Shown: piece after piece, positions 1 to 64,000 of the stretch
Layout of the letters: every line of letters starts with the position of its first letter
Position numbering within the stretch: the first letter of the stretch is position 1
DNA from: an uncultured euryarchaeote
GTDB lineage: Archaea; Thermoplasmatota; Poseidoniia; Poseidoniales; Poseidoniaceae
Assembly (NCBI GenBank): GCA_937899865.1
Contig: CALBRH010000025.1
Coordinates: 44,176-108,175, forward strand
Reading direction: 5' to 3'
Length of the DNA: 64,000 bases
Position numbers and translations under genes: made by a program
The notes under the pieces: generated by a model
Database searches by the model: none
The model's input: only the letters and a program-made list of their open reading frames with translations
What the model was told of the DNA's origin: nothing

Positions 1-399
1 GAATTAATCCGAACTGCTGAAGTGCCAATAATTGGAATTTGTTTTGGCCATCAGATTATTGCTGCAGCCCTTGGGGGTAAAGTAGAGCGAGCATCCAAAG
101 GTAGTCATTTTGTTTCTGAAGTGAAATACATAGATGGTGCTGTAGTTAATGCTGTGTTCACCCATCAAGACCACGTTGTAGATGCAGGAGAGTTAGAGGT
201 GATTGCTTCTGCACAACATTGCAAGATAGCGGCTTGTCAACATCCAACTAGGCCGATAAGAACAGTCCAATATCATCCTGAAGCAACATCTCGTATATTG
301 TCTAAAGCACTTAAGCACGGTGATATGACTAAAGTCGAAGCAGAAGTTTTTGATATGTCAAAGCCTTTGATAGATGTTTATGATTCACTCCTTGCTTGA
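1..399 (+). CDS. Class I glutamine amidotransferase family protein, 5'-truncated by the window edge
   Basis: Frame is open from base 1. It has the nucleophile motif PIIGICFGHQ and the QYHPE His-Pro-Glu motif. Confidence 0.85.
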   Translation, partial: ELIRTAEVPIIGICFGHQIIAAALGGKVERASKGSHFVSEVKYIDGAVVNAVFTHQDHVVDAGELEVIASAQHCKIAACQHPTRPIRTVQYHPEATSRILSKALKHGDMTKVEAEVFDMSKPLIDVYDSLLA

Positions 400-1113
400 A
401 TTGGAAAGTTCAATGAAATCTTGTTCAAACGAGTAAAGACACAATATTAATCCAACAAAAAGAGCATATTCTGCATATGCTGCAACATCAATAGCATACT
501 GGATTTTGTCCAAAGTTAGAATTGTATCTCCCTCAAGTCCATATTTGTCTAAACCATTAACTGCACGAACGACTGCTTGAGACATTATCACATAGGATAT
601 TAATGATAGTGAGATACTAAAAATTCGCAACTTCTTCCCCTTCTTATTGGCATTTGGAATAGCAAAGTGAGCCACGATTGCCCATACCATGCCGCCTTGA
701 AAAACCATTGAGGCTGTAATGACATGTAGTGCAAGATAGTCATACATGTTAGCAAATGACATTACAAACAAATTTCCACCAGTGAAAAGACCGCATAACA
801 TTGCTAAAAACAATAATTTGCTAGACTTTATTCTACTAAATTCGTACCACATCCGATAAGAAAATAGCATTTGAGCAAGTCCTGAAATTGCTAAACCAAT
901 TGTGAATACCCATCGCTCTACACCAGGGAAATCAGCTTCAGAGATGAAGAAGGGGAAGTCTCTGGAATTGCCATTTAGCAAATGAATTACCATGGCTAAA
1001 GGTACTACAGTAGCAGGTAGTAACCAACTAGTCTTAACTAGGGTTTCATCAGACAGGAATATTTTTCCAATTTTGATGCCATTTTTATCATTTTTCACTA
1101 CGACACCGTGCAT
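385..1113 (-). CDS. Multi-pass membrane protein resembling the Frag1/DRAM/Sfk1 family
   Basis: About six hydrophobic segments and an FPFFISEAD...ERWVF segment like the family's PYISDxG..PE motif. ATG at 1113 is preferred over the TTG at 1143 because a TATA-like element lies about 25 nt upstream. Confidence 0.55.
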   Translation of the reverse strand: MHGVVVKNDKNGIKIGKIFLSDETLVKTSWLLPATVVPLAMVIHLLNGNSRDFPFFISEADFPGVERWVFTIGLAISGLAQMLFSYRMWYEFSRIKSSKLLFLAMLCGLFTGGNLFVMSFANMYDYLALHVITASMVFQGGMVWAIVAHFAIPNANKKGKKLRIFSISLSLISYVIMSQAVVRAVNGLDKYGLEGDTILTLDKIQYAIDVAAYAEYALFVGLILCLYSFEQDFIELSNSSKE

Positions 1114-1174
1114 GGCGAATGGATTCGTGCCTATAACCTTCAAGTGTGATGGCTAACACCGCAACCTGTTTCAA

Positions 1175-2662
1175 ATGCCTCTGCGAGTCCACGACACCCG
1201 CCGTCGAGAGAAAGTTCCGTTCAAAACAATGGAGCCAGGTAAAGTCTCGATGTATGTCTGTGGCGTGACTGTATACGATAATTGTCATTTAGGCCATGCT
1301 CGTTGCTATCTTGCGTTTGACTTGATCCATCGTTGGCTTGAAGCATCAGGATTTGATGTACATTATGTTCAGAATTTCACCGATATCGATGACAAAATCA
1401 TCAATCGTGCCAACGAAACAGGAGCAGATTGGCGAAAATTGGTAGATGAAAATATTGCAGGATATTATGAAGATATGGACGCACTCAACATATTGAGAGC
1501 TGATGATTATCCACGTTGTACGGAATATGTAGATGATATGATTCGTATTACTCAAGATTTAATCGATAAAAATCATGCATATACTGCCCACGATGGCGTT
1601 TACTTCCATGTTGAGTCAGCACCTGAGAAATATGGGCAATTGACCGGGCAAAGTATTGATGCGGTACGCTCAGGTGCAGGTGGTCGAGTCGATGATACTG
1701 GATCTGGAAAGCGAGATCACAAGGATTTCGCTCTTTGGAAAGCCGCTAAACCAGGTGAGCCACACTGGGATTCTCCTTGGGGGCCAGGAAGGCCTGGTTG
1801 GCATATCGAATGTACTGCAATGTCAATGGATTACTTTGGCAAACAGTTTGATATTCACGGTGGGGGTCATGATTTGCGATTCCCGCATCATGAAGCAGAA
1901 ATCTTCCAAGGTGAATGTCACACAGGTTGTTCACCAGTAGTTCATCATTGGTTGCACAATGGTTTTGTTAATATCGATGGAGAGAAAATGAGTAAATCTC
2001 TGGACAACTTTTGGACTATCAAAGATATCCTGAAACAAGTTGATGCAATGGTGTTAAGATTTGCTTTAATCAATGCACATTATCGCTCACCAATCGATAT
2101 GAATGAGACCTTGTTAAAGGATGCTGAGCGCAATTATAATCGTGTTTTGAAGTGCTATATCAATGCACTAAAGAGCATGACTACGAAGTCACCAATTGCA
2201 TTACCACAACCAGATATTACTTCTCAACAGCCGCTAATCAAGTCTTTAGCAATGCTCGAGAAAATGGGCGAAGGATTTGCTCAAGCAATGGATGATGATT
2301 TCAATTCTCGCGATGCAGTTGCTAAGGTTCTTGGAGGAGTAAGAGAAATTTCCAAAGTGCTAGACAGTGGTTTAGATGACGCAGATAAAGACGCATTTGC
2401 TCATTATGCAGTTGATTGGTTAGAAGAATCTGCAGGCGTAGTTCTTGGGATTTTACCAACTCGAGAATTTGCCTTATTAGAACCGGAAGAAGACCCGCGT
2501 AAAGCAGAGATTGCACCCCGAGTGGAGGGTCTTCTTATCGAGAGAGCAGAAGCAAGAGCTAACAAAGATTGGGCAAAGGCTGACCAAATTCGTGATGAGT
2601 TGAACTCAATGGGAGTAATCGTAACTGATTCAGCCGATGGACCAACTTGGGAACTTGAGTAA
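1175..2662 (+). CDS. cysS: Cysteine--tRNA ligase
   Basis: [15 protein letters not shown] (HIGH motif), [30 protein letters not shown] and a C-terminal ADQIRDEL anticodon domain. Confidence 0.98.
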
Positions 2663-2689: not shown

Positions 2690-5572
2690 TCACTTGGGCG
2701 GTGGTTTTAGATCAGGTAAAACCGGCACGAATTGTTTTGGTTGGTGCTTTTCCATCACTGTTAGGAACTCATCCAAACTGATTACTCCATCACCATTAGC
2801 ATCAAATGTATCCAGCATAGCATCGATATCTGAAACCTTTACAGAGTCTTTGAGCAATGTGTTGACAGCGGTTCGAATCTCTCTCCTTGAGACATAACCA
2901 TCGTTAGTTTGGTCAATAGCAGTGAACAACCTTACTGCAGAAAGTCCGGAGGATTTCATAGCGCTAGCAACCTTGTCCTTGATGTCGATTGAATCATCTT
3001 TACCATCAGAATCACTTGAAGATTCATTCACATCTTCATCATCCCAAATTTTGTCGATTACTGTTGTTTGAGAATTAAGAAGATCATCATCGTCACCTCG
3101 ACTGACAACATACAATCCAAATAGCAATGCAATCACAATAATTAGTAAAATTAGTTTCAATTGATTCTTTGTTGCTTCATCTGCTTCTGCTTCATCAATA
3201 AATTGGTCATCTGGTTGGTCAGCAAACATGTCATCGTCATCATCAACAGTATTGTTATCGGTTGGTCCAGGTAATGTAGTAGTGTCGCCACCATTGTTGG
3301 TATTGCCGCCATTGTTGTTATTGTTACCAGTATTTGTGTTGTCATCGGGAAGTTGAACATTGACATTTATCCTGTCACCATTTTCCATTTCAACAGTGTA
3401 ATAATTGTCATATAATTTTGTCAAATCAATGTGATAATTTGCATGAGTTGAACGATTGATTACATCGAAGTAGCGGTCATCTCCAGAAGTAAATATTGGG
3501 TCCAAAGTCAGGTTCTTCAAACGATTAACATTATCTTTGTAATCACCATCAAAAGTAGTATTCAACCAAGCATTGATTTCTTCATCGCTGTCGCCGTTGA
3601 ACTCGACCCAATTAGCCTTCATGTCATCAAACTCATGACGCATAGCCATGGCCAGACCTGCCTCGATTTCGGCAAAGGTTTGACTACCATCTACCTCGGT
3701 CAGTGATGTCACATCTACGGCTTTTTGGAATCCTGTACCATTGACATATTCCCAATCATCACCTTGCAATTGTTGCATGAGGTCAACATCACCAAATACG
3801 GCTTTACCTTGTACTACGGTTAGTGCTACATCAGCATCAATAGCTTCAATCAAGTTTCGATATGGGTCTTCATGGAAGGTATCTATGACAACAAGGTCAG
3901 CATATAGGTCAGCCTTGATTCGTCCAACAAAAGGAGTCCACCCTGTGGCATCAGCAGGATTACAAGTAACCATTTCTACCAATTCATAATTGCTAAAGTG
4001 GCCACCAAGATTGTTGGTGTTCCACATATCTGCAACCTTTAATTCATGCAGGTTATTTTTCGAACCACTTGGCCCCCAATCTGGTGAGATTGAGATGCTT
4101 ACACCTGCTTGGTCTGCCGCGACAACATCAGTTGTATCACCGTATAGTAATAGATTAGAAAGCGGAGACCACACAAGTTCTGAATTGACACTAGCCATTT
4201 TACTAAATTGTGAGGAGTCTAATGCTGTTCCATGAATGACAATAGTTTCATCCATTATCAAATTCTTACTCCACAATGCATCAAATTCGTCTTTGCTGGA
4301 TTGATCAACTCCTTCTGATAAGTGAACAAACCACGCGTTTAGTGTTCCTGCCTCACTTTGACTAATCAGGTGGCTACCTGTATAATCGTCATCAGCAGCA
4401 CCACATACAGCGCATGTAGAAATACCGTCTTGTCCGAAGTTGTATAACTCGACATTTCTCGACAGAATGCTATCCCATGCTTGGGTGCCTGAACTTGGTG
4501 AACCTTGCATGGCAGTCACTCCACCGGAGACTGCTTGTACCTCAGCGTACTTCATCTGTTCACTTGCCATATCCCAACGATAAGTCGACTGAATATTGGT
4601 CTTCATCCAAGTAATACTTGGTCCGTAATCCCAGTTGTTACCCCATTGGTATCTGTTAGTGTATCCGCCTTCCTCTGACTTTTGAGAGTCACTAAGATGC
4701 ACATCGAAATCCCAAAGAGGTATGTGATTGTAATGTACGTGATTGTGCAAATCAATCAATCCAGGATAAATTGTCCCTTCAGTTTCAACGATTGGCACAT
4801 CAGTAAAATCAACACCAGCAGGTGGATTGGCATTTGATGCCCATACCCCGGTAATCTTACCGTCACGAATCATCACATTTCCATCATTTATTACGTTATT
4901 TTCACCATCCATTGTGACAACTCTTCCTTTGAGAAGGAATGCTCTAGATGAGTCTGTGTTGGTCAACTTATAGCAATTAACAATGTTGTCAGGTACAGTA
5001 TACGGCTCTGAATAATCTGCAGCCCTACCGGGGGTCGGGTCGTCCTTGGTTAAACTGCCATCATCCGAAATGTAAGACCTGCCATAACTAGAGTCACTTG
5101 CTGGGAAAGACATAGAGTTGATTAGATTAGAATTGGTATCAGAAATACTGACTGTCTCGCCATCAAAATAACTCAGATCGAGGTCGGAATCAGCACGGAA
5201 TACTACCAATCTCTCATCAGCATCGAGCGTAGTATTGTATGGAAGTTGACAAGGCGGGCTACCACTGGTTGTTGAAAGGAGCCAACTTGAGACATCCTGT
5301 GGTGCATCACCGGAATTCCATATTTCGATAAATTGGTCACTATATTTACCGTAATCTCCGTCGCCATTCCAGTCAACTGCGCCGTAGATGTTAGAATTAG
5401 TTTCATTGGCTACAAGATTATTTGGACTAATGAAAAGTTCCGAAATAACCACATTTGCCGCACGACCATTTGCCTCTTTTGCATCGTCTAATTCTAGGCT
5501 ATTGACTGTTGAAGACCATGAAGAAAACATCAGCAGCAGCAACACGCTTGAGGCAACTAGTACTCGTCGCAT
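2690..5572 (-). CDS. Secreted, membrane-anchored amidohydrolase with an N-terminal lamin-tail domain and a C-terminal EF-hand pair
   Basis: Signal peptide MRRVLVASSVLLLLMF; lamin-tail-like VVISEL...QFIEIWNSG; metal motifs IDLHNH, HLSEG, IHG and ISPDW; TM helix LILLIIVIALLFGLYVV; EF loops DQTNDGYVSRRE and DANGDGVISLDE. Start moved from 5623 to the ATG at 5572. Confidence 0.85.
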   Translation of the reverse strand: MRRVLVASSVLLLLMFSSWSSTVNSLELDDAKEANGRAANVVISELFISPNNLVANETNSNIYGAVDWNGDGDYGKYSDQFIEIWNSGDAPQDVSSWLLSTTSGSPPCQLPYNTTLDADERLVVFRADSDLDLSYFDGETVSISDTNSNLINSMSFPASDSSYGRSYISDDGSLTKDDPTPGRAADYSEPYTVPDNIVNCYKLTNTDSSRAFLLKGRVVTMDGENNVINDGNVMIRDGKITGVWASNANPPAGVDFTDVPIVETEGTIYPGLIDLHNHVHYNHIPLWDFDVHLSDSQKSEEGGYTNRYQWGNNWDYGPSITWMKTNIQSTYRWDMASEQMKYAEVQAVSGGVTAMQGSPSSGTQAWDSILSRNVELYNFGQDGISTCAVCGAADDDYTGSHLISQSEAGTLNAWFVHLSEGVDQSSKDEFDALWSKNLIMDETIVIHGTALDSSQFSKMASVNSELVWSPLSNLLLYGDTTDVVAADQAGVSISISPDWGPSGSKNNLHELKVADMWNTNNLGGHFSNYELVEMVTCNPADATGWTPFVGRIKADLYADLVVIDTFHEDPYRNLIEAIDADVALTVVQGKAVFGDVDLMQQLQGDDWEYVNGTGFQKAVDVTSLTEVDGSQTFAEIEAGLAMAMRHEFDDMKANWVEFNGDSDEEINAWLNTTFDGDYKDNVNRLKNLTLDPIFTSGDDRYFDVINRSTHANYHIDLTKLYDNYYTVEMENGDRINVNVQLPDDNTNTGNNNNNGGNTNNGGDTTTLPGPTDNNTVDDDDDMFADQPDDQFIDEAEADEATKNQLKLILLIIVIALLFGLYVVSRGDDDDLLNSQTTVIDKIWDDEDVNESSSDSDGKDDSIDIKDKVASAMKSSGLSAVRLFTAIDQTNDGYVSRREIRTAVNTLLKDSVKVSDIDAMLDTFDANGDGVISLDEFLTVMEKHQPKQFVPVLPDLKPPPK

Positions 5573-54189: not shown

Positions 54190-54197
54190 CTATATAT
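54190..54197 (+). promoter_or_regulatory. TATA box of the giant surface protein gene; implies a leaderless transcript
   Basis: AAAGGGATA-CTATATAT lies about 26 nt upstream of ATG 54223, which is the canonical archaeal BRE/TATA spacing. Confidence 0.5.
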
Positions 54198-54222
54198 GTG
54201 CCTTATTGGCACATTTACACAC

Positions 54223-57200
54223 ATGAACGGTAGCGCAAGCCATGGAAAAACTGTAAAATCGGCGTTTTTAGTCATTCTAATGATTATAATGACTCAAGTC
54301 GGGTACTTGGACCTGATAAATAGTCCAAAAACCGGTAATGATTCATTGAGCGAAGAAACTTCAGTGTTTGAGACTGCTCAAGGAACCTCGATTATTTACG
54401 GCAATAATACTCAATGGGCGCCATCTGGTTCATTAGAAACATATGGTTTCTCAGGTAATGCCGATATAATTGCGACAAGTGACGATGTAATTTTGCTCAA
54501 AGGGCAAAATGGTAAAGACAGTAACATTCGTTGTATAATTGCCTACAATTATGTCAACAAAACCTCTTGGCAGCCAAATGTTGTAGGTACATCGCAATGC
54601 CCGGGTGCACATTCTTTTTGGAAGTTCATTGGCATCATCGACGGAGTGACATTGGTGCGGTATGACTCAGGGAGTTCGAATAGTCAAAACCATGCGCTTT
54701 TTGGCTACAACCCGAATAACGATACTTTCTATCCAATAGCAAGCCTTCCAAACACACTAGATACAGTAGGTGGTACTGCGATTATTGGTAGAAATGTCTA
54801 CATGGGTACACTACAATCAGATGTGACTATTTTTAATTATGATAATCAGACCATTTGGGAACTGAATAATATTGGTTCATCAAGTTGCAACTCTTTAGAG
54901 TACTATGATACTGGCGCTGTCGGCGATAAATTTTTTGGAAGGTGTAGCAACCGTTTAGCTATTTTTGATCCAGCCACACAATCATTATACACTCCAAGCA
55001 GTATGTCTTCTGTGTATGTTAATAATACGCATACAACAACTAGAACTGCGGTAATAGGCAACCAATTATTATTCCAAGGATATGATAGTGTCAACGGTAA
55101 GGAGTTATGGGTCTATGATGCCAATAATGATTCTGCATGGATGGCTGCAGATATTGCAGTAGGTTCGGATTCAGCATGGTCAACGTATGGGCAGTTTAAC
55201 CCGCTGCGTTCAGGAACAAAAGTTCTGTTTGAGGCTACCGACCAATTCGATGACAAAGACCTTTGGTGGTATGATAGCACCAATGCCTCAGTTTGGCGTG
55301 CAACAAATTTCTCAGATCCCAGCATAATATTTAACGGATGGAGCAGCAAGAATTATGGCGAATTGGCCAATGGTGTTATTGCCATAGGTCACGGAAATGC
55401 CGATGGAACTAATACGAATTATTACTCGAACTACATTTCATTCTACAACCCAAGTAATGGTACAGTATGGCAAGAGCCCACTTTGTATGAGTTAACTGAG
55501 CAAACAGGTTATGCGCCAAACACTAATGGCAATATCAAATTACGCGCAGTATATGGTAACACTATTATTGGAACTGCAGAAATCAATACAGGATCACCAG
55601 TAGGATATTACTACAAATTATTTGCTTTTGACCTCACCAATCAAACCCGACAGATCTCAGCCAACCTAGGCAATGCTCAATACTCGCATTATGATATTAT
55701 CAGTACCAACATAGTGACGTTTGGCGACCACATCTTGTATGGCTTGGCCTGCGGTAATAATATTGCAAATTCATGCCCTGCTGTTGGCGGGGGTCGGCAA
55801 GCCGCAGTCGCTTGGTCGCCCGGTGCAATAGCAGTTAATGATGCATGGAACATTTCGGCTGGAGACCGTCTTGACGGCCCAATTTCAGGTGGCGATGGGC
55901 GTTTCTACAACTCAGGGGCTGGCGTGCAAAATCTAACCGCCAGTTCAGAAGGTGCCGAACTGATGGTTGGCGATCTCATGGATGATATCACCTTCCAATA
56001 CAACGCCAGTGCAGCAAGCGGTTCCGGTAGTGGCTCAGGCAGCGTTTCAAGCGGAGTCTCTTCGAGTTCCTCGTCCTTTGCTTATGCGAACAATAAGTTG
56101 GGTGCTGGATTCCACACCTGCGCCATCCTTGACAACGGCGACCTGAAGTGCTGGGGATGGGACGTCGAAGGGCAGTTGGGCGATGGTGGTTTTTTCGTAG
56201 ACCTCAACTCACCTCCAAATACCGCGATTGACCTCGGCTCGGGCCGAACGGCCGTTGCGGTGTCAAATGGTTGGCGGCACACCTGCGCCATCCTCGACAA
56301 CGGCGATCTGAAATGTTGGGGACGGGACTATCACGGACAGTTGGGCGATGGTGGAAGCAACACGAACCTCAACGTACCTTCAACCACGGCGATTGACCTC
56401 GGCACGGGCCGAACGGCCGTTGCGGTGTCTGGTGGATATCAACACACCTGCGCCATTCTTGACAACGGCGACCTGAAGTGTTGGGGAGGGGACCAATACG
56501 GACAGTTGGGCGATGGCGGACCAGATTGGTCCAACAGTAACCCAACCGACACCAACGCACCTTCAACCACGGCGATTGACCTCGGCACGGGACGAACGGC
56601 CGTTGCGGTATCTACTGGATTCCACCACACCTGCGCCATCCTTGACAACGGTGAGTCGAAGTGTTGGGGCAATAATGGAGATAAACAGTTGGGCGTCGGT
56701 GCGTACACCACACACCTCACTACACCTCCAACCTCAGCGATTGACCTCGGCACGGGCCGCACGGCTGTTGCGATCTCAGCTGAATCTGTCAACACCTGCG
56801 CCATTCTCGACAACGGTGAGGCGAGGTGCTGGGGGTACAATGCCTACGGACAGTTGGGTAATGGAAACAACAACGCTCATGATTTACCTGTTTCAGTTTT
56901 CGGCAACGCTTGGGATTCCTCAACCGGACTGAGCAGCGGCTCGGGCGGCGGCTCAAGCGGCGGCATGACCAACGTCACCGGTGCAACCTCTTGCGTTGCA
57001 ACACCTTCGTTGCCTAGTGGTTTGAACATCGACAGCAATACGTGTACAATTAGCGGCACACCAACGGTTGAATCGGTCAATCAAACCTACACGGTCACCG
57101 CCGTCATCAGTGGAACGACCTTCCAAACAACAGTTTGGTTGTCCATCATCCCATTTGGCACAATTACCTCAACAGTTGATGGTGCTGAACTGCAACTTGG

Positions 57201-60200
57201 TGAAGCGATGACGCCGATCACGCTAAACTACACTTCACAAGCACCACCAGGTTCGACGATAAATGGCAACGGTTCAGTTTGGGATGTCACAAGTTACACA
57301 GCAAATGTTGGTTTACCAAGCACTATAAATCCAGGCCTAAATTTCCATCTCGTCGTTGGTGATGTCATTTACTTTGATGGTCAATGTTCTTCAGCCTCAT
57401 GGTCTCAGTGCAACGGCAGAGAGTTATGGGCTTATGATACCTCTAACCAAACAGGTTGGTTGGTTAAAGATATAGGGCCATCGTATTATTCAGGAAATCC
57501 AGGAATGTACTGGAATGAAGTTATTCTAATGGGAGATACGCTTTATTTCCCTGCAGTAAGTACAGGTTCTTGGCAGCAGAGTAAATACGAATTACACGCC
57601 TTTGATATCTCAAATCAAACACTTTGGCAAGTAACCAATTCTTCAGACCCCAATCCTATTTGGTCGCAATCCCATGCTCCTAATCGAGAGGCCTTACCAA
57701 AAGTGATTGGTGACACAATATTCTTCGAATATGACGATGGTTTGACAGGAGATGAACTCTGGGCGCACAATACCTTAAACGGAACAACATGGCAAGTTAT
57801 TGACTTAAATATTGGACAAAATTGGAATGACAGTAATCCAGGAGAAAAATTAACCAAGGTTGTTGATGGAGTACTTTACTTCGACGCTTATACTTCATCA
57901 TCAAACGGTTATTTTCTGTGGGCACATAACCCTTCAAACGGTTCGACTTGGCAAACTTCAAGCAATGTTGCCGTTTCATGTACGCCTGCATCCTCTGTTC
58001 GCTGTGAGAGTACTGTTGTCGATGGAATAATCTATTTCCAAGGCATTGAATCCACTTTCAATTCCAACACGAATGGTAAGGAACTTTGGGCTTATAGTAC
58101 ATTGAACGGTTCTGCTTGGTTAGCTGCTGATATTAATAACGTAGGATCAAATAGCAACAGTGAACCTGGTAAACATTTCATGATTGCCATTGGTGATGAA
58201 ATCTACTTTGATGCAGATGGTTGGTGGGATGACGGAGATGGCTTTTTGCGAAATGTCGGCCATGAAGTTTGGGGTTATAGTATTTCAAACGGTTCATATT
58301 GGTTAGCGTACAATTCACGTGTTGAATCGACCACAACCCCTCTGGGTAGCAATCCAGGATATAGGTTGAGTTATGCAATTGGTGACAAATTATACTTTAG
58401 CGCAGCCGACCCACAACCATATGGACCTGGATTATTTGTTTATGATACTTCTACACATGAGGGATGGAAAGTTGATGGAATAAGGGACGTAAAAGGACAT
58501 TTCAACACTCAAAGCGTAGTTATGGGTGACAATCTAATCATGGATGCTATGCCCGCCCATGGCTATGGTTGCAATGCTCAAAATGAATTAATGATTCACT
58601 CTCAATCAAATAATACAACATGGAATTTACACAATTGTGCAGGAAACATCCTTGGAATATCAACTGGTGACCACTTTATGGTAAACGTCGGAGACAAACT
58701 CTACTTCAATCAAGATGATGTTTTGATGGGCTATTATCCTCAGGAACTGACAATGAATACACCGCCACCAACGACTTGGGAAACTGAACCTCCACTACCT
58801 GCTGGTATGAGTATCTCAGGCGGTACGATTAGCGGCACACCTTCGGTTTATGCCAATAATCAAACCTACACAATTTACGCTAATCAGAGCGGTCAAACAA
58901 CAACTCATGACTTATACTTCAGCGTTGACAATGCTTATCCACACACTGTAGTGGAAGACCAACCGATTGATGCAATCGGCTTCCATCCTGCATTCTGGGA
59001 TGGTACAACCACATGGAGCATTTCACCAAGTTTGCCAAACACTCTATTGCAAGATAGTGCAACTGGTGAGATTACCGGTACGGTTGACAGTCCAATGAGT
59101 GATACATTTACCGTTACTGCTACTCATAGTAGTGGAGCATCTGAAACATTTACTTTCAGTATTGAGAGTTTACTCGATACTGATAGTGATGGCTTACCGG
59201 ATGACTTGCCACCAACTTACAACCCAGCCAATCCTCCTACTTCTGGATTGATTGCTGATGATGATGATGATGGCGATGGCCTACTTGACAGCGTGGAGAC
59301 TGATACTGGCCTCTACATTAATGGACAGGATACTGGAACTGACCCGCTTGACCCTGACACTGATGATGACGGAATTTGTGATGGTCCAAATGCAGTGCCA
59401 CCAGTTTGTATTGCTGGTCCTGACCCGTCACCTAATGGTAATACACCACCACCAACTTTGGTCGGAGTCAATAATACCGACATTGGCACTCTATCACCTT
59501 ACTTGGTAGTGCCTGGCGGAACTTTCGAGATTTCTCCAGACTTGCCAGACAGTTTGTCAATCGATCCAAATACTGGTGAAATTACTGGAACTCCAACTCA
59601 AACCTTGACTAACACGACATTCACAGTTTGGTGTAACCATACTGACGGAACTTCGGTATCTTGGGATTTCACAATTGAGATTCTTGAGGACAGTGATGGC
59701 GATGGTATGCCAAATGAGCTGCCAGATGATTACGACCCAACTAATCCGGACTCGCCTGGTTTGATTGAAGATTTGGATGATGATAACGACGGTAATTCAG
59801 ATGTTGATGAAGAAGCCGGCGGCACCGACCCAACCAACCCAGATACTGATGGCGATGGTATGTGTGATGGTCCAGTTGCCATTGAGCCAGACTGTGTTGC
59901 TGGTCCAGATGCTTTCCCACTTGACCCGTCAGCAGATACTGATACTGACGGCGATGGTGACCCAGATACTTTGACTCCACCATCCACCAGCATACCTCCA
60001 CTTGTTGAGGACTTGGACGATGATGGCGACGGTATTGAGGACGTCAATGAAACCAATACTGGAATCTACAATGGTGATACTGATACAGGTACCGACCCGC
60101 TTGACCCAGATACCGATAACGACGGTATTTGTGATGGTCCAGTTGATGTCCTACCAATCTGTGTAGCTGGTCCTGACGAAGACTTTGGCGTTGCAGTTGA

Positions 60201-63200
60201 TGGAGCAGTCTATTTGGTAAATAATACTCAAATGGTTATGTTAAATCCAAAATACACTATTGAAAACGGTGTCTATGAAATATCTCCTGACTTGCCTGAA
60301 GGAGTCATTATAAATCCACAGACTGGTGTTATTTCAGGTACTCCAACAGAAGTAATGGATAATACTACATACACTGTTTATGGAAATAACAGCCAAGGTG
60401 GCGTATTCTTTACCTTTGAACTTCAAGTTCTTGAGGATTCAGACTTAGATGGAATGCCAAATGAACTACCAAATGATTATCCAACCAATGATGATAACTA
60501 CAACTTAATTGAAGATCTCGATGATGATAATGACGGAGCATCTGATGTAGCTGAGACAGATACTGGAATCTATGTTGATAACAATGATATGGGAACAGAC
60601 CCACTTGACCCAGATACTGATGATGATGGTATATGTGATGGTCCAAATTCAGTATTGCCAATTTGTATTGCTGGTCCTGACTCCAATCCATTTGGTACAG
60701 GTCCACTTGGCCCAACCGTACTTGTCAACAATACTGAGATGATTCCACTACCTCCTGCTAATGCAGTTCCAGGTGCTATTTGGGCGGTATCTCCTGATTT
60801 ACCTGCTGGTTTGACACTCAATGTGACAACCGGAGTAATTAGTGGTACTCCAACAGAAGCAATGGAGAATACTACTTTCACATTGTGGGCGAATACTTCT
60901 GAGCCAAGAAGTGTTGAATCTACATTCTGGCTTGAAGTCTTGGAAGATACTGATGGCGATGGTATGCCTGATGAATTGCCAGACGACTATCCTGATACTG
61001 GACTACCGCCATTTGACTTAATCGAAGATTTGGATGACGATGCTGATGGTATGCCTGATGTTGATGAAGCAACCAATGGTACTGATTCACTCAATCCAGA
61101 TACTGACGGTGATGGCTTCTGTGATGGTCCTAGTGCAGTTGATGGCGTATGTTATGCTGGTCCAGACTCACACCCACTCGACCCAGATATGCCGGTTAAC
61201 ACCGATGGAGACGCTTTCCCAGATGACGATCCTGATGGTGATGGTGGCTTGATTGCTGATGATGACGATGATAATGATGGCTACTTGGACACTGAAGAAG
61301 TTGATTGTTTGTCTGACCCACTCGACGTAAATGATGTTCCGAGTGACATGGATGGTGACGGAATTTGTGATGCACTTGATGATGACATGGATGGCGATGG
61401 TGTGCTCAACGATGAAGAAACCAATAGTGGTAATTTCGGTAATGACCTTGACTCACTAACTGATCCAGCAAACCCAGATACCGACGGTGATGGAGTTTGT
61501 GATGGTCCTGCTACACCTGATGCAAGTATTTGCGTAGCTGGACCCGATGCATTCCCAGATGACCCTGCAGCCTCTCTTGATACCGATGGCGATGGTATGC
61601 CTGACGAGTTGAACGGTGAATCTACTACAGGTTTGATTGAAGATGAGGATGATGACAATGACACTATTGATGATGTTACAGAACTGATGTGTGGCACTGA
61701 TCCGAAAGTAGTCAACGTTTTGCCAGATATTGATGGCGATGGAATTTGTGATGCAATGGATGATATTCTTGACTTGCCGTTTGAGCTGTCTTATGAAAGT
61801 CAACATCTAGACCTATTTGTAAATAAGACAATGGTCGCATTTATGCCAAATGTTACCGGACTTGGTGATGTAGCAAGTTGGGAATTAGTTGGCGATTTAC
61901 CAGAAGGCTTGACCTTTGGAATTAGTGATGCGAGAAGTGGTGGACTTGACGGAGGAATTCGTGGAACACCAGCAAATGCAACAGATGAGCCAGTTAATCT
62001 AACGATTTGGGCGAACAATTCCAATTACCAGCGTTCATTTGCCTTGATGGTGACAGTCTTTAACGACACAGATAACGATTCCTTACCTGATTCACTACCA
62101 GAAAATTACACTGGTAATCTAACAGCAGATGATGATGATGATAACGATGGATTCTTTGACCAAGATGAGATAAACTGTGGCTCAGACCCACTTGATACTT
62201 CATCAGACCCAACCAATACTGAAGGTGAAATCTGTGAAAAGTTATCAGATGGTGGTAAGGATGATGGTGAAGATGGATTAGCCTGGTGGTGTTTCCCACT
62301 ATGTTTCCTACTGCTATTGTTACTACTTGTGCCACTACTACTATTCCGTGACAGAGTAATTGGCGTAATTGATGATGCTGAGCCAGAAAATACTACTTCA
62401 AAACCTAAGTTTGCTGAAGGTGCTGGAAATAAAGACAATCCATTTGTGCTCAAACCAGCTAAGACAGTAAAGCCTGGCGATACTGTTGTCAGTAAAGAAG
62501 TCATTACAATTACCAATATCACACCTGGTTTGAAAGTCAAGTCTGTTGATTACTTTGACCGTGAAAATGGACGCAAGTTCACCATGCAAGACCAATCCGG
62601 AAGTGATGAAGGCGTAAGGATGATTGAAGCTGATGAAGAAGGCGAGATGAAGTTTAGATTGATCTTTGATGACAGTTTCGATGCAACTCTTGCTGGTGGA
62701 GAATTCCAAGGTGCAATCAAGGTTGGTCGACGCTCGGTATACTTGATGTGGGATGTTAAGGTCAAGCCAGACCCAGACTACGTCAAAGAGCAGAAGAAAC
62801 TTGAAGCAGAGCGAAAGAAGGCTGAGAAGGAAGCTGAAAAGCAAGCCGAAAAGGAAGCCAAGGAAGCAGAAGCGAAGGCCAAGAAGGAAGCCGCAGCAGC
62901 CGAAAAGGAAGCCAAGAAAGAGGCTGAGAAGAAGGCTAAGGAAGAGGCAGAAGAAGCCGCAGCAGCCAAGAAGGCAGAGGAAGCAGCATTAGCAGCAGTA
63001 GCCGCTGCCGAAGCGGAAGAGAAAGCTCAGAAGAAAGCGGAAAAGGAAGCTAAGGCCGCTGAAGCCAAGGCCAAGAAGGAAGCCGCTGCAGCCGAGAAGA
63101 AAGCCAAGAAAGAGGCAGCTGAGGCTGAGAAGAAAGCCAAGGAAGAGGCAGAAGCAGCAGCAGCCGCTGAAGCAGAAGCGAAGGCCAAGAAGGAAGCTGA

Positions 63201-64000
63201 AGAGGCTGAAAAGAAGGCTAAGGCTGAAGCAGAGAAGGCCAAGAAGGCAGCAGCCAAGAAACCTGCAACCACCAAGGAAGCCAAGAAGCAAGAGGAAATC
63301 AAGCGTGTTAAATCTCGTGCGAAGAGTATTGACTTCAAGGTGCTTGGAACTGCATCTTCGACTAAGTTGAAGAGTGAAGTAAAGAAGGGTGCTAAGACTT
63401 TGGAAGTTGCTGATGCTAAAGAATTCGCTGATTCTGGAAGTGCCGCAATTACCGATGATAAGGGTTCAACAATGATTACTTGGACTGGTAAAGATGGTAA
63501 TACTCTAACAGGTGTTGGTGGAGTTACCAGAGTCTTTGGAAAAGCATCTGTAGTTATGGTAAGAGATGATTTGCAAGTTATCAAGGGAATCGGTCCGTTT
63601 ATTGAAGAGAAATTGAATGCTCTTGGAATCACAACCTACCGACAAATTGCTAACATGACTGCTAAACTTGAAACTCAAGTCAACGAGGCAATCGAGTTCT
63701 TCCCAGGCCGTGTCAAGCGTGACCAGTGGGTTGCTCAAGCCAAGATTTTGCTTGGTGAAGATGCTAAACTTGACGAGAAAGCGCTGAAAGAGGCTGAAGA
63801 GTTAGAGAGAATCGCTCAGAAGGCTGAAACAATTGACTTCGATACACTTGGTGTTGCGACTTTCGATGAGAAAGATGACCTCCAAACTATCAAGGGAATA
63901 GGTCCTTTCATCGCTGATAAGTTGTATGCTCTTGGAATCTACACCTTTGCTCAAGTTGGCAACATGACCTCGAAGATCGAAGAAGAAGTCAACAAAGCGA
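54223..64000 (+). CDS. Giant single-pass surface protein (at least 3259 aa, 3'-truncated): propellers, Ig-like (He_PIG) domains, Ca-binding repeats, TM helix, K/A/E helix and HhH domains
   Basis: Hand translation of frame 1 shows no stop from ATG 54223 to the window end. Signal MNGSASHGKTVKSAFLVILMIIMTQVGY; TM AWWCFPLCFLLLLLLLVPLLLF at 62281-62346. It is absent from the ORF track because no stop codon is present. Confidence 0.92.
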   Translation, partial: MNGSASHGKTVKSAFLVILMIIMTQVGYLDLINSPKTGNDSLSEETSVFETAQGTSIIYGNNTQWAPSGSLETYGFSGNADIIATSDDVILLKGQNGKDSNIRCIIAYNYVNKTSWQPNVVGTSQCPGAHSFWKFIGIIDGVTLVRYDSGSSNSQNHALFGYNPNNDTFYPIASLPNTLDTVGGTAIIGRNVYMGTLQSDVTIFNYDNQTIWELNNIGSSSCNSLEYYDTGAVGDKFFGRCSNRLAIFDPATQSLYTPSSMSSVYVNNTHTTTRTAVIGNQLLFQGYDSVNGKELWVYDANNDSAWMAADIAVGSDSAWSTYGQFNPLRSGTKVLFEATDQFDDKDLWWYDSTNASVWRATNFSDPSIIFNGWSSKNYGELANGVIAIGHGNADGTNTNYYSNYISFYNPSNGTVWQEPTLYELTEQTGYAPNTNGNIKLRAVYGNTIIGTAEINTGSPVGYYYKLFAFDLTNQTRQISANLGNAQYSHYDIISTNIVTFGDHILYGLACGNNIANSCPAVGGGRQAAVAWSPGAIAVNDAWNISAGDRLDGPISGGDGRFYNSGAGVQNLTASSEGAELMVGDLMDDITFQYNASAASGSGSGSGSVSSGVSSSSSSFAYANNKLGAGFHTCAILDNGDLKCWGWDVEGQLGDGGFFVDLNSPPNTAIDLGSGRTAVAVSNGWRHTCAILDNGDLKCWGRDYHGQLGDGGSNTNLNVPSTTAIDLGTGRTAVAVSGGYQHTCAILDNGDLKCWGGDQYGQLGDGGPDWSNSNPTDTNAPSTTAIDLGTGRTAVAVSTGFHHTCAILDNGESKCWGNNGDKQLGVGAYTTHLTTPPTSAIDLGTGRTAVAISAESVNTCAILDNGEARCWGYNAYGQLGNGNNNAHDLPVSVFGNAWDSSTGLSSGSGGGSSGGMTNVTGATSCVATPSLPSGLNIDSNTCTISGTPTVESVNQTYTVTAVISGTTFQTTVWLSIIPFGTITSTVDGAELQLGEAMTPITLNYTSQAPPGSTINGNGSVWDVTSYTANVGLPSTINPGLNFHLVVGDVIYFDGQCSSASWSQCNGRELWAYDTSNQTGWLVKDIGPSYYSGNPGMYWNEVILMGDTLYFPAVSTGSWQQSKYELHAFDISNQTLWQVTNSSDPNPIWSQSHAPNREALPKVIGDTIFFEYDDGLTGDELWAHNTLNGTTWQVIDLNIGQNWNDSNPGEKLTKVVDGVLYFDAYTSSSNGYFLWAHNPSNGSTWQTSSNVAVSCTPASSVRCESTVVDGIIYFQGIESTFNSNTNGKELWAYSTLNGSAWLAADINNVGSNSNSEPGKHFMIAIGDEIYFDADGWWDDGDGFLRNVGHEVWGYSISNGSYWLAYNSRVESTTTPLGSNPGYRLSYAIGDKLYFSAADPQPYGPGLFVYDTSTHEGWKVDGIRDVKGHFNTQSVVMGDNLIMDAMPAHGYGCNAQNELMIHSQSNNTTWNLHNCAGNILGISTGDHFMVNVGDKLYFNQDDVLMGYYPQELTMNTPPPTTWETEPPLPAGMSISGGTISGTPSVYANNQTYTIYANQSGQTTTHDLYFSVDNAYPHTVVEDQPIDAIGFHPAFWDGTTTWSISPSLPNTLLQDSATGEITGTVDSPMSDTFTVTATHSSGASETFTFSIESLLDTDSDGLPDDLPPTYNPANPPTSGLIADDDDDGDGLLDSVETDTGLYINGQDTGTDPLDPDTDDDGICDGPNAVPPVCIAGPDPSPNGNTPPPTLVGVNNTDIGTLSPYLVVPGGTFEISPDLPDSLSIDPNTGEITGTPTQTLTNTTFTVWCNHTDGTSVSWDFTIEILEDSDGDGMPNELPDDYDPTNPDSPGLIEDLDDDNDGNSDVDEEAGGTDPTNPDTDGDGMCDGPVAIEPDCVAGPDAFPLDPSADTDTDGDGDPDTLTPPSTSIPPLVEDLDDDGDGIEDVNETNTGIYNGDTDTGTDPLDPDTDNDGICDGPVDVLPICVAGPDEDFGVAVDGAVYLVNNTQMVMLNPKYTIENGVYEISPDLPEGVIINPQTGVISGTPTEVMDNTTYTVYGNNSQGGVFFTFELQVLEDSDLDGMPNELPNDYPTNDDNYNLIEDLDDDNDGASDVAETDTGIYVDNNDMGTDPLDPDTDDDGICDGPNSVLPICIAGPDSNPFGTGPLGPTVLVNNTEMIPLPPANAVPGAIWAVSPDLPAGLTLNVTTGVISGTPTEAMENTTFTLWANTSEPRSVESTFWLEVLEDTDGDGMPDELPDDYPDTGLPPFDLIEDLDDDADGMPDVDEATNGTDSLNPDTDGDGFCDGPSAVDGVCYAGPDSHPLDPDMPVNTDGDAFPDDDPDGDGGLIADDDDDNDGYLDTEEVDCLSDPLDVNDVPSDMDGDGICDALDDDMDGDGVLNDEETNSGNFGNDLDSLTDPANPDTDGDGVCDGPATPDASICVAGPDAFPDDPAASLDTDGDGMPDELNGESTTGLIEDEDDDNDTIDDVTELMCGTDPKVVNVLPDIDGDGICDAMDDILDLPFELSYESQHLDLFVNKTMVAFMPNVTGLGDVASWELVGDLPEGLTFGISDARSGGLDGGIRGTPANATDEPVNLTIWANNSNYQRSFALMVTVFNDTDNDSLPDSLPENYTGNLTADDDDDNDGFFDQDEINCGSDPLDTSSDPTNTEGEICEKLSDGGKDDGEDGLAWWCFPLCFLLLLLLLVPLLLFRDRVIGVIDDAEPENTTSKPKFAEGAGNKDNPFVLKPAKTVKPGDTVVSKEVITITNITPGLKVKSVDYFDRENGRKFTMQDQSGSDEGVRMIEADEEGEMKFRLIFDDSFDATLAGGEFQGAIKVGRRSVYLMWDVKVKPDPDYVKEQKKLEAERKKAEKEAEKQAEKEAKEAEAKAKKEAAAAEKEAKKEAEKKAKEEAEEAAAAKKAEEAALAAVAAAEAEEKAQKKAEKEAKAAEAKAKKEAAAAEKKAKKEAAEAEKKAKEEAEAAAAAEAEAKAKKEAEEAEKKAKAEAEKAKKAAAKKPATTKEAKKQEEIKRVKSRAKSIDFKVLGTASSTKLKSEVKKGAKTLEVADAKEFADSGSAAITDDKGSTMITWTGKDGNTLTGVGGVTRVFGKASVVMVRDDLQVIKGIGPFIEEKLNALGITTYRQIANMTAKLETQVNEAIEFFPGRVKRDQWVAQAKILLGEDAKLDEKALKEAEELERIAQKAETIDFDTLGVATFDEKDDLQTIKGIGPFIADKLYALGIYTFAQVGNMTSKIEEEVNKA
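56101..56900 (+). repeat. Five tandem RCC1-like repeats inside the giant CDS
   Basis: Unit HTCAILDNGxxKCWGxxxxGQLG..AIDLGTGRTAVAVS. The near-identical DNA GCGATTGACCTCGGC starts at 56224, 56389, 56572 and 56737. Confidence 0.92.
59173..62230 (+). repeat. Thrombospondin type 3-like DxDxDG Ca-binding repeats alternating with Ig-like domains
   Basis: Recurring DTDGDGMPDELP, EDLDDDNDG, GTDPLDPDTDDDGICDGP..C.AGPD and SPDLPxGL..TGxISGTPT. Confidence 0.88.
62790..63270 (+). repeat. Lys/Ala/Glu low-complexity helical stalk (TolA-like or single alpha-helix)
   Basis: About 160 codons that are almost all K, A or E (for example KAEKEAEKQAEKEAKEAEAKAKKEAAAAEK). Confidence 0.88.
63562..64000 (+). repeat. 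Tandem helix-hairpin-helix domains in the cytoplasmic tail
   Basis: DDLQVIKGIGPFIEEKLNALGITTYRQIA (from 63562) and KDDLQTIKGIGPFIADKLYALGIYTFAQVG (from 63871). More copies may follow beyond the window. Confidence 0.85.

Follow-up and report, generated by a model that had tools for sequence, protein, structure and literature searches.

The window, a 64,000-nucleotide stretch from a Poseidoniales (Marine Group II) archaeon (GenBank assembly GCA_937899865.1, contig CALBRH010000025.1, positions 44,176 to 108,175), carries a giant surface-protein gene in which two immunoglobulin-like (Ig) units of the He_PIG family are each split by an inserted array of propeller blades (Table 1). Marine Group II organisms are among the most abundant planktonic archaea and are uncultured. 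Their attachment to particles or algae has been argued only from archaellum and 'thrombospondin' genes (PMC6461757). Homologues of the window protein, 2000-5500 amino acids (aa) long, are encoded in Poseidoniales metagenome-assembled genomes (MAGs), and the source databases label them 'ELWxxDGT repeat protein' under organism names such as 'Candidatus Poseidoniaceae archaeon' and 'Poseidoniales archaeon'.

A sequence-only reading of the window had claimed that intact Ig units late in the protein read continuously and that two units are broken at an equivalent point, and we confirm this observation. Five uninterrupted He_PIG units were located downstream of units 1 and 2, all of the strings quoted for the broken units are present, and with the inserts removed, units 1 and 2 both align without gaps to the five intact units. 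The first unit follows the order that had been read from the letters, with a linker, exactly five RCC1 repeats, a second linker and then resumption of the unit (residues 579-985). Both units are broken at a TNxGG loop that joins the third strand to the fourth. Unit 2 reads ...LQLGEAMTPITLNYTSQ, is interrupted by a 507-residue insert and resumes with ...TTWETEPP, while an intact unit in a second giant protein of the same genome (C62) reads uninterrupted as ...FDLIVGEAMTPITPSNSGGTATSWSISP....

Profile searches describe the same break. He_PIG (PF05345) matches the whole window protein in six stretches, with an E value of 1.5e-38 and 131.5 bits against a cut-off of 24, and the isolated C-halves of the two split units clear this cut-off on their own (38.9 and 29.8 bits). 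Neither split unit forms a contiguous full-profile He_PIG domain: the part after the insert matches only positions ~36-91 of 96, and each C-half is therefore without the first third of the domain, which lies 320 residues upstream in unit 1 and 507 residues upstream in unit 2. Since Pfam is blind to the N-halves and to the whole of unit 2, we used an in-house 88-state hidden Markov model (HMM), made from 37 intact He_PIG units, to show the split. Across 158 non-redundant relatives, C-half-only matches (n = 224) have start positions that cluster at profile positions 27-34, and after 77 RCC1 arrays and 27 ELW arrays what comes next is a C-half alone. The N-half motif of unit 1 stands before other heads in relatives. 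The split-unit pattern thus recurs across relatives far beyond chance.

Table 1. Features of the giant surface-protein gene in the window (window positions; pLDDT, predicted local distance difference test)
Feature	Position	Residues	Strand	Basis or remark
Unit 1 (socket 1) N-half, He_PIG Ig domain	55930..56010	579-605	+	aligns to N-terminal strands of intact units
Ser/Gly linker 1	56011..56082	606-629	+	sequence; pLDDT <50
Head 1, five RCC1 blades	56083..56916	630-907	+	Pfam RCC1_2, RCC1, WD40_RLD
Ser/Gly linker 2	56917..56970	908-925	+	sequence, model
Unit 1 C-half	56971..57150	926-985	+	Pfam He_PIG E 1.2e-9, profile positions 36-90 of 96
Unit 2 (socket 2) N-half	57151..57240	986-1015	+	alignment, orthologues; three modelled strands
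Head 2, ELW-type β-propeller of ~8-9 blades, 507 aa, without Ser/Gly linkers	57241..58761	1016-1522	+	AlphaFold2 strand pattern
Unit 2 C-half	58762..58932	1523-1579	+	Pfam He_PIG E 8e-7, profile positions 43-91 of 96
Giant surface-protein gene	54196..63999		+	single open frame, at least 3268 aa, 3' end lost at contig end
N-terminal hydrophobic segment (signal or anchor)	54253..54321	~20-42	+	Kyte-Doolittle peak 2.14
Free N-terminal ELW-type propeller region	54373..55875	~60-560	+	outside any Ig unit; in-house ELW HMM match
Stalk, five intact He_PIG units alternating with acidic thrombospondin-type-3-like repeats	58933..62265		+	profile matches, unit alignment, motif count
Intact He_PIG units of the stalk	58933-59172, 59449-59688, 60199-60435, 60706-60945, 61798-62064		+	
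C-terminal transmembrane helix	62284..62370	~2697-2725	+	Kyte-Doolittle peak 2.96
Cytoplasmic tail, Lys/Ala/Glu-rich coiled coil and two helix-hairpin-helix modules	62371..63999		+	sequence, Pfam/NCBIfam

Relatives were collected by a genome search across the order Poseidoniales; a related-locus search of genome contigs gave two loci only. Unit 1 was matched at least in part in 130 of the 151 genomes sampled across the order, mostly through its RCC1 part. We located the unit-2 site by its flanks, namely the end of unit 1 with the unit-2 N-half on one side and the unit-2 C-half with unit 3 on the other (flank identity 62-98%). Comparison of homologues had been proposed as a check from the letters alone, and the inserts indeed differ at this orthologous site, with the unit-1 site equally variable. 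Socket 2 holds an ELW-type propeller of ~480-536 aa in the window gene and in L003, L004, P0010, P0011, P0018, P0007, P0042 and others; a seven-blade RCC1 propeller of ~390-432 aa in G054, G118, G074, G146, P0054, P0009, P0015, P0046 and others; and an insert of ~723 aa in P0021 and P0024. In P0058, P0075, P0029, P0090 and G040 the socket is empty, with only a 3-4 residue loop in its place (...GEAMTPITLNYASQ-AGSG-TAPTTWETEPPLP...), and our HMM finds the empty-site unit of G040 to be one contiguous unit (positions 7-84). Since the empty sites read as contiguous Ig units, the two halves make up one Ig domain, into a loop of which the propellers are inserted.

A maximum-likelihood tree built from the socket-2 flanks only (34 rows, 199 columns) implies at least six head-state changes, where the minimum possible is two, and one starred, well-supported flank clade (96/89) holds ELW, RCC1 and empty states together. 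Socket 1 was found empty, with five RCC1 repeats (the window gene and G118), with seven, with 14 (G028), with ELW and with other contents. In P0010, P0020 and P0009 it is doubly filled, with nine ELW blades followed by seven RCC1 blades in one loop; the two propellers (residues ~38-1019 in P0010) are joined by a Ser/Gly linker, and the insert measures ~900-980 residues. A seven-blade FG-GAP propeller is found at socket 1 in G118 (PF13517, E 1e-48), and a LamG/concanavalin A-like domain in G054 (PF13385, E 4e-19), seemingly within an inner Ig unit. There, in a genome of the same genus (L035:5101-6489, G054:C3), an N-half-like strand motif is followed by LamG, by LamG's own He_PIG C-half and at once by the outer C-half, which looks like two-level nesting, with a lectin in an Ig unit in an Ig unit.

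We considered MAG chimerism as the source of this polymorphism and rejected it, as the states recur in many independent assemblies and cluster with the flank phylogeny. The design is seen in many NCBI, ENA and JGI assemblies, and one of the searched genomes consists of three contigs. Another is a single contig, but its one mapped RCC1 array looks tandem rather than inserted. An RCC1 propeller followed by a near-complete Ig unit (HMM start 5-10), seemingly placed between Ig domains, was also noted in L012, L018 and L042 (G003, G092 and G036, respectively).

Structure prediction with AlphaFold2, which had been named as a way to tell one β-sandwich from two separate domains, gave no indication that the halves fold separately, and the empty-site relatives are contiguous. 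The unit-2 model has a pLDDT of 82 and a predicted template-modelling score (pTM) of 0.83; its N-half forms three strands at pLDDT 70, 87 and 90, its C-half forms five at 75-90, and a propeller of 8-9 blades lies between them, in line with the 'about eight' ELW-type blades counted beforehand. The confidence of the N-half and the high pTM fit a packing of the unit-2 halves as one sandwich. Mainly from the empty-site orthologues, and also from model confidence, we infer that the halves close into one sandwich in the window protein. The input of the unit-2 model was an alignment (A3) with 13 intact units, split across the insert by MAFFT; another (A2, 37 intact units) was discarded, as it laid the intact units contiguously against the last propeller blade. 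The placement of intact units by the aligner varies with the input set and was not counted as evidence. The unit-1 model, from a 14-sequence alignment, reached a pLDDT of 71.5 and a pTM of 0.65, with the propeller at 80-91, the C-half at 62-79 and the Ser/Gly linkers disordered. Fold searches with both models return propellers only, since one domain fills the match list.

Head 1 consists of RCC1 repeats, matching RCC1_2 (PF13540, E 9e-38, five stretches) and RCC1 (PF00415, E 7e-21); WD40_RLD (PF25390) matches with an E value of 1e-40 and 140 bits, below its cut-off of 150. It has five repeats only, short of the seven blades of a closed propeller, and its model superimposes on UVR8 with a Z score of 32.6 and a root-mean-square deviation of 1.7 Å over 254 aligned residues, covering five of the seven UVR8 blades. 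Lectin propellers are among its structural neighbours. Five-blade RCC1 arrays occur in at least three genomes (the window; L006/L045, G118:C34; L008, G024:C21), while seven blades are the rule. Assembly collapse as the source of the five-blade array was rejected, as a five-blade unit is also present in G118 (64% identical, full length) and in G024. For head 2, the best structural matches of the unit-2 model are 8-9-blade propellers, with Z 17.2 over 373 aligned residues for 9qzc_i and Z 12.4 over 370 for 4nox (the nine-bladed eIF3b), and the head is 30-36% identical to the regular ELWxxDGT propellers of other sockets. Among the profile matches, no catalytic family reached its threshold.

The same genome encodes a second giant with He_PIG sockets and the same loop position (G000:C62:11958-36974; L001, L002). 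This protein has 8339 aa, 42 He_PIG units at a spacing of ~88 aa and a C-terminal transmembrane helix, and eight of its units contain an insert of 366-496 residues, placed at HMM positions ~28-38. Directly before several of these inserts stand N-half-only HMM matches (independent E values 4.5e-7, 2e-5, 0.011 and 0.012). Of the eight heads, two belong to the ELW type, two bear a weak likeness to BNR and the other four are without a Pfam family. Unlike the window gene, C62 has a much longer array and different socket sequences, and no RCC1 stands in a socket, the sole RCC1 array being N-terminal.

Composition bears on how the heads change. The G+C content at third codon positions (GC3) is ~0.30-0.38 along the window gene and its neighbouring genes and rises to 0.50-0.70 over the whole of unit 1, Ig halves included (55870-57150, residues ~560-985); head 1 itself has a GC3 of 0.62 versus ~0.33 in the rest of the gene. 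A GC3 anomaly was also noted in L004, L045 and L023. The RCC1 heads of other genomes stay at 0.50-0.66 in genes with anything from 0.35 to 0.79 elsewhere. In G118 and G146, whose genes otherwise have a GC3 of 0.75-0.79, the value drops at the head edges and the Ig halves keep the host value; the RCC1 head of G118 has ~0.5 exactly within its edges, against 0.79 elsewhere in the gene. This constancy of the RCC1 cassette hints at lateral exchange. From unit 2 onward, the window protein shares 84% identity with L004, and 96% in the unit-2 C-half and unit 3, while the RCC1 heads of the two are only 64-68% identical, and L004 carries an additional whole ELW unit between units 1 and 2. There are probably two modes of change, in which either a head is replaced within its socket or whole Ig-plus-head units are gained, lost or replaced, and the conserved sequences of the Ig halves probably act as recombination arms.

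The anatomy of the split units, the polymorphism of the sockets and the break in composition are shown here, and together they make it probable that the window protein is a giant surface fibre whose Ig sockets display exchangeable propeller heads. From the N-terminus, the fibre would consist of the free propeller, the two filled sockets, a stalk of ~1100 residues in which He_PIG and thrombospondin-type-3 modules alternate, a transmembrane helix and a cytoplasmic tail, and the split units would thus form the distal, ligand-facing end of a membrane-anchored structure. The cadherin-like He_PIG modules would serve both as stalk extenders and as sockets. In the sockets, the chain would leave the sandwich after the third β-strand, at the TNxGG loop, build a globular head and return for the remaining strands, for which a β-propeller would be well suited because its two ends meet. 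Among relatives the sockets are kept while their contents are repeatedly lost, gained and replaced (none, five, seven or 14 RCC1 blades, ELWxxDGT, FG-GAP, BNR-like, LamG or two propellers), most likely by recombination of the head alone or of the whole Ig-plus-head unit. Of the display scaffold with exchangeable binding heads that the sequence-only reading had put forward, the exchangeability stands, with at least six state changes on the flank tree, and is supported at the evolutionary level, between lineages, rather than as switching within a cell. Binding is the part that stays conditional: the heads could plausibly recognise ligands carried by particles, algae or other cells, for example glycans or proteins, given that lectin-type folds are among them and that they occupy the distal end of a long stalk. 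Swaps might then alter binding specificity or help the cell escape viruses for which the protein is a receptor.

Several observations weigh against parts of this picture. Pfam gives no match to the N-halves alone and no family for the whole of unit 2 (57145-58941) or for an empty-site unit (L040:2255-2575), and its He_PIG match covers only the C-terminal two thirds of a unit, intact units included. The unit-1 N-half was modelled as two strands at a pLDDT of only 48-55, and 11 RCC1 arrays among the 158 relatives lead into an Ig unit that appears complete, meaning that insertion is not the sole arrangement. Going by its model, head 1 may form an open arc instead of closing into a ring, or its ring may be completed by another chain, and the intermediate GC3 could instead reflect an intrinsic codon constraint of the RCC1 repeat. 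The partial Pfam coverage, the low confidence of the unit-1 N-half and the 11 arrays all favour a beads-on-a-string protein, in which the propellers are independent, with cap strands of their own, and the 55-residue 'C-half' is a self-folding, truncated Ig-like module. We regard such a protein as very improbable and the idea as largely refuted, however, given that empty-site orthologues join both halves by a loop of 3-4 aa and score as a complete unit, that N-half-only matches stand right before the C62 inserts, that in regular arrays each head is preceded by exactly one N-half and followed by exactly one C-half, and that the unit-2 model places the N-half at a pLDDT of 87-90 with a pTM of 0.83.

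If the propellers are indeed inserted, only whole Ig-plus-head units might still be gained, lost and shuffled, with heads never exchanged within a fixed scaffold and sockets not reusable. The GC3 anomaly of the window gene, which spans all of unit 1 with both Ig halves, the extra whole ELW unit of L004 and the widely varying number of units among homologues are in keeping with this, but at socket 2 the halves and the neighbouring units are orthologous (62-98% identity) while the content differs, a single well-supported flank clade has ELW, RCC1 and empty states, and the GC3 break of G118 and G146 coincides with the head edges, with the Ig halves at host composition; we therefore find exclusive shuffling of whole units quite unlikely. 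A different doubt concerns what the heads do, as they could be enzymes, envelope spacers, or virus decoys or shields, with their variability a sign of relaxed constraint or virus-driven diversification. Ligand binding is itself a matter of inference, BNR-like (sialidase-type) and generic propellers can be catalytic, and surface giants are typical targets of virus-driven diversification. On the other hand, lectin-type folds are present (LamG/concanavalin A-like, E 4e-19; lectin propellers near head 1), the heads are membrane-distal on a long stalk of Ca-binding type, as are the ligand-binding regions of RTX adhesins and SraP, and no catalytic family was found at its threshold, so a non-adhesive role seems unlikely to us. 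Display of exchangeable heads on Ig sockets is the explanation that we retain.

The sequence-only reading had likened this display to an antibody framework with swappable loops, and we find that the split domain of bacterial RTX adhesins, already described, fits better. Split domains of RTX adhesins are reportedly the subject of Graham et al. 2024 (Proteins 92:933). In AhLap of Aeromonas hydrophila, FrhA of Vibrio cholerae and MpIBP of Marinomonas primoryensis, Ig-like split domains project ligand-binding domains from the fibre (PMC12077191, PMC10865825, bioRxiv 10.1101/2025.09.30.679566). They carry CBM, PA14, vWFA, peptide-binding and β-roll domains away from the fibre axis; crystal structures exist (such as 9CSE), nested splits occur, and split domains serve to recognise ligand-binding domains (PMC12077191, bioRxiv 10.1101/2025.09.30.679566). 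Propellers and archaea are unmentioned in these two papers. The window protein follows this design, with putative ligand-binding domains projecting from Ig-like split domains. In both systems, a β-sandwich extender of a giant fibre is interrupted by a globular domain with adjoining ends and completed afterwards, several split pairs lie in the distal region, nested splits occur, the sets of heads differ among relatives, and the stalk is of Ca-binding type.

The differences are as marked. The window protein is archaeal and belongs to a single-membrane cell envelope, with a C-terminal transmembrane anchor and a cytoplasmic tail. Its split domain is He_PIG (cadherin-like) rather than BIg and is split after the third strand, whereas RTX adhesins are split after the first strand or before the last two, and its heads are whole propellers of 320-850 aa (RCC1, ELWxxDGT, FG-GAP, BNR-like) in place of CBM, PA14, vWFA and PBD (peptide-binding) domains. 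For the archaeal protein, one and the same orthologous socket is seen empty, filled and refilled. No RTX family, RTX β-roll or type I secretion signal was among the Pfam and NCBIfam matches at E <= 0.01, with the true C-terminus lying beyond the contig end, and no N-terminal retention module (a plug of an outer-membrane TolC-like pore) was found, the N-terminus being a hydrophobic segment followed by a propeller. Judged by these features, the window protein is not an RTX adhesin, and the likeness is one of shared working principle, not of common descent.

By sequence, the nearest solved relatives of the He_PIG units are the cadherin-like modules of Staphylococcus aureus SraP (PDB 4M00 and 4M03, E 0.0016), which also belong to the binding region of an adhesin. 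Unlike those of the window protein, the SraP modules are intact, and the lectin head stands in series with them, not inside a module. A ligand-binding domain nested in a loop of a β-sandwich stalk is also known from the integrin beta subunit, where the beta-I domain is inserted in the Ig-like hybrid domain, and from Gram-positive pilus tip adhesins such as RrgA, with a vWA domain in an Ig-like domain; both differ from the window design in having no sequence relationship to it, a single fixed vWA-type insert and no socket polymorphism. Our literature searches on He_PIG with a propeller or insertion, and on giant proteins of Poseidoniales, found nothing specific. The split-domain principle is already known, and its He_PIG, propeller-bearing, archaeal form with documented socket polymorphism is new.

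These results extend the split-domain display principle beyond bacterial RTX adhesins and indicate that an Ig module of 90 residues has room for an insert of 300-900 residues, even for two propellers in one loop. With orthologous sockets both empty and filled, nature supplies an experiment on how well a fold withstands the insertion of a domain, and such sockets might be of use as scaffolds in protein engineering. The swappable, sharply bounded heads are concrete candidate recognition molecules with domain boundaries fit for expression and for glycan or cell binding assays. Since the N-halves, and at times whole units, escape Pfam, routine annotation hides this architecture. It is also possible, and we offer this only tentatively, that a lineage-wide pool of head cassettes (RCC1, ELWxxDGT, FG-GAP, BNR-like and LamG) is recombined among He_PIG sockets across genera of very different GC content, making the surface giants a modular, rapidly retargetable recognition system. 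Such a pool would parallel, in archaea, the swapping of tail fibres or adhesin tips, with viruses or the changing ligands of particles and phytoplankton as the driving force, and the constant intermediate GC3 of the RCC1 heads would be the footprint of cassette traffic.

Outside the sockets, the hydrophobic segment at the N-terminus ('LMxxMTQVGY') recurs in homologues, and the propeller behind it holds the best stretch (residues 289-327) of the match to TIGR04534 (NCBIfam ELWxxDGT_rpt), which scores 64.9 bits against a cut-off of 65. The stalk has 23 DxDxDG motifs and 25% Asp plus Glu; PF18884 (bacterial thrombospondin type 3 repeat) reaches 20.4 bits in the window protein, where the cut-off is 25, and homologues do carry PF18884. 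N-glycosylation sequons number 19.6 per 1000 aa before the membrane helix versus 7.4 after it, and this density and the N- and C-terminal hydrophobic segments agree in fitting an extracellular location of the part N-terminal of the helix. The tail beyond the helix resembles the C-terminal extensions of NuoE, ribosomal protein L21 and the phasin PhaH (NCBIfam E 1e-10 to 1e-19), and its combination of helix-hairpin-helix modules and coiled coil is unusual for a surface fibre.

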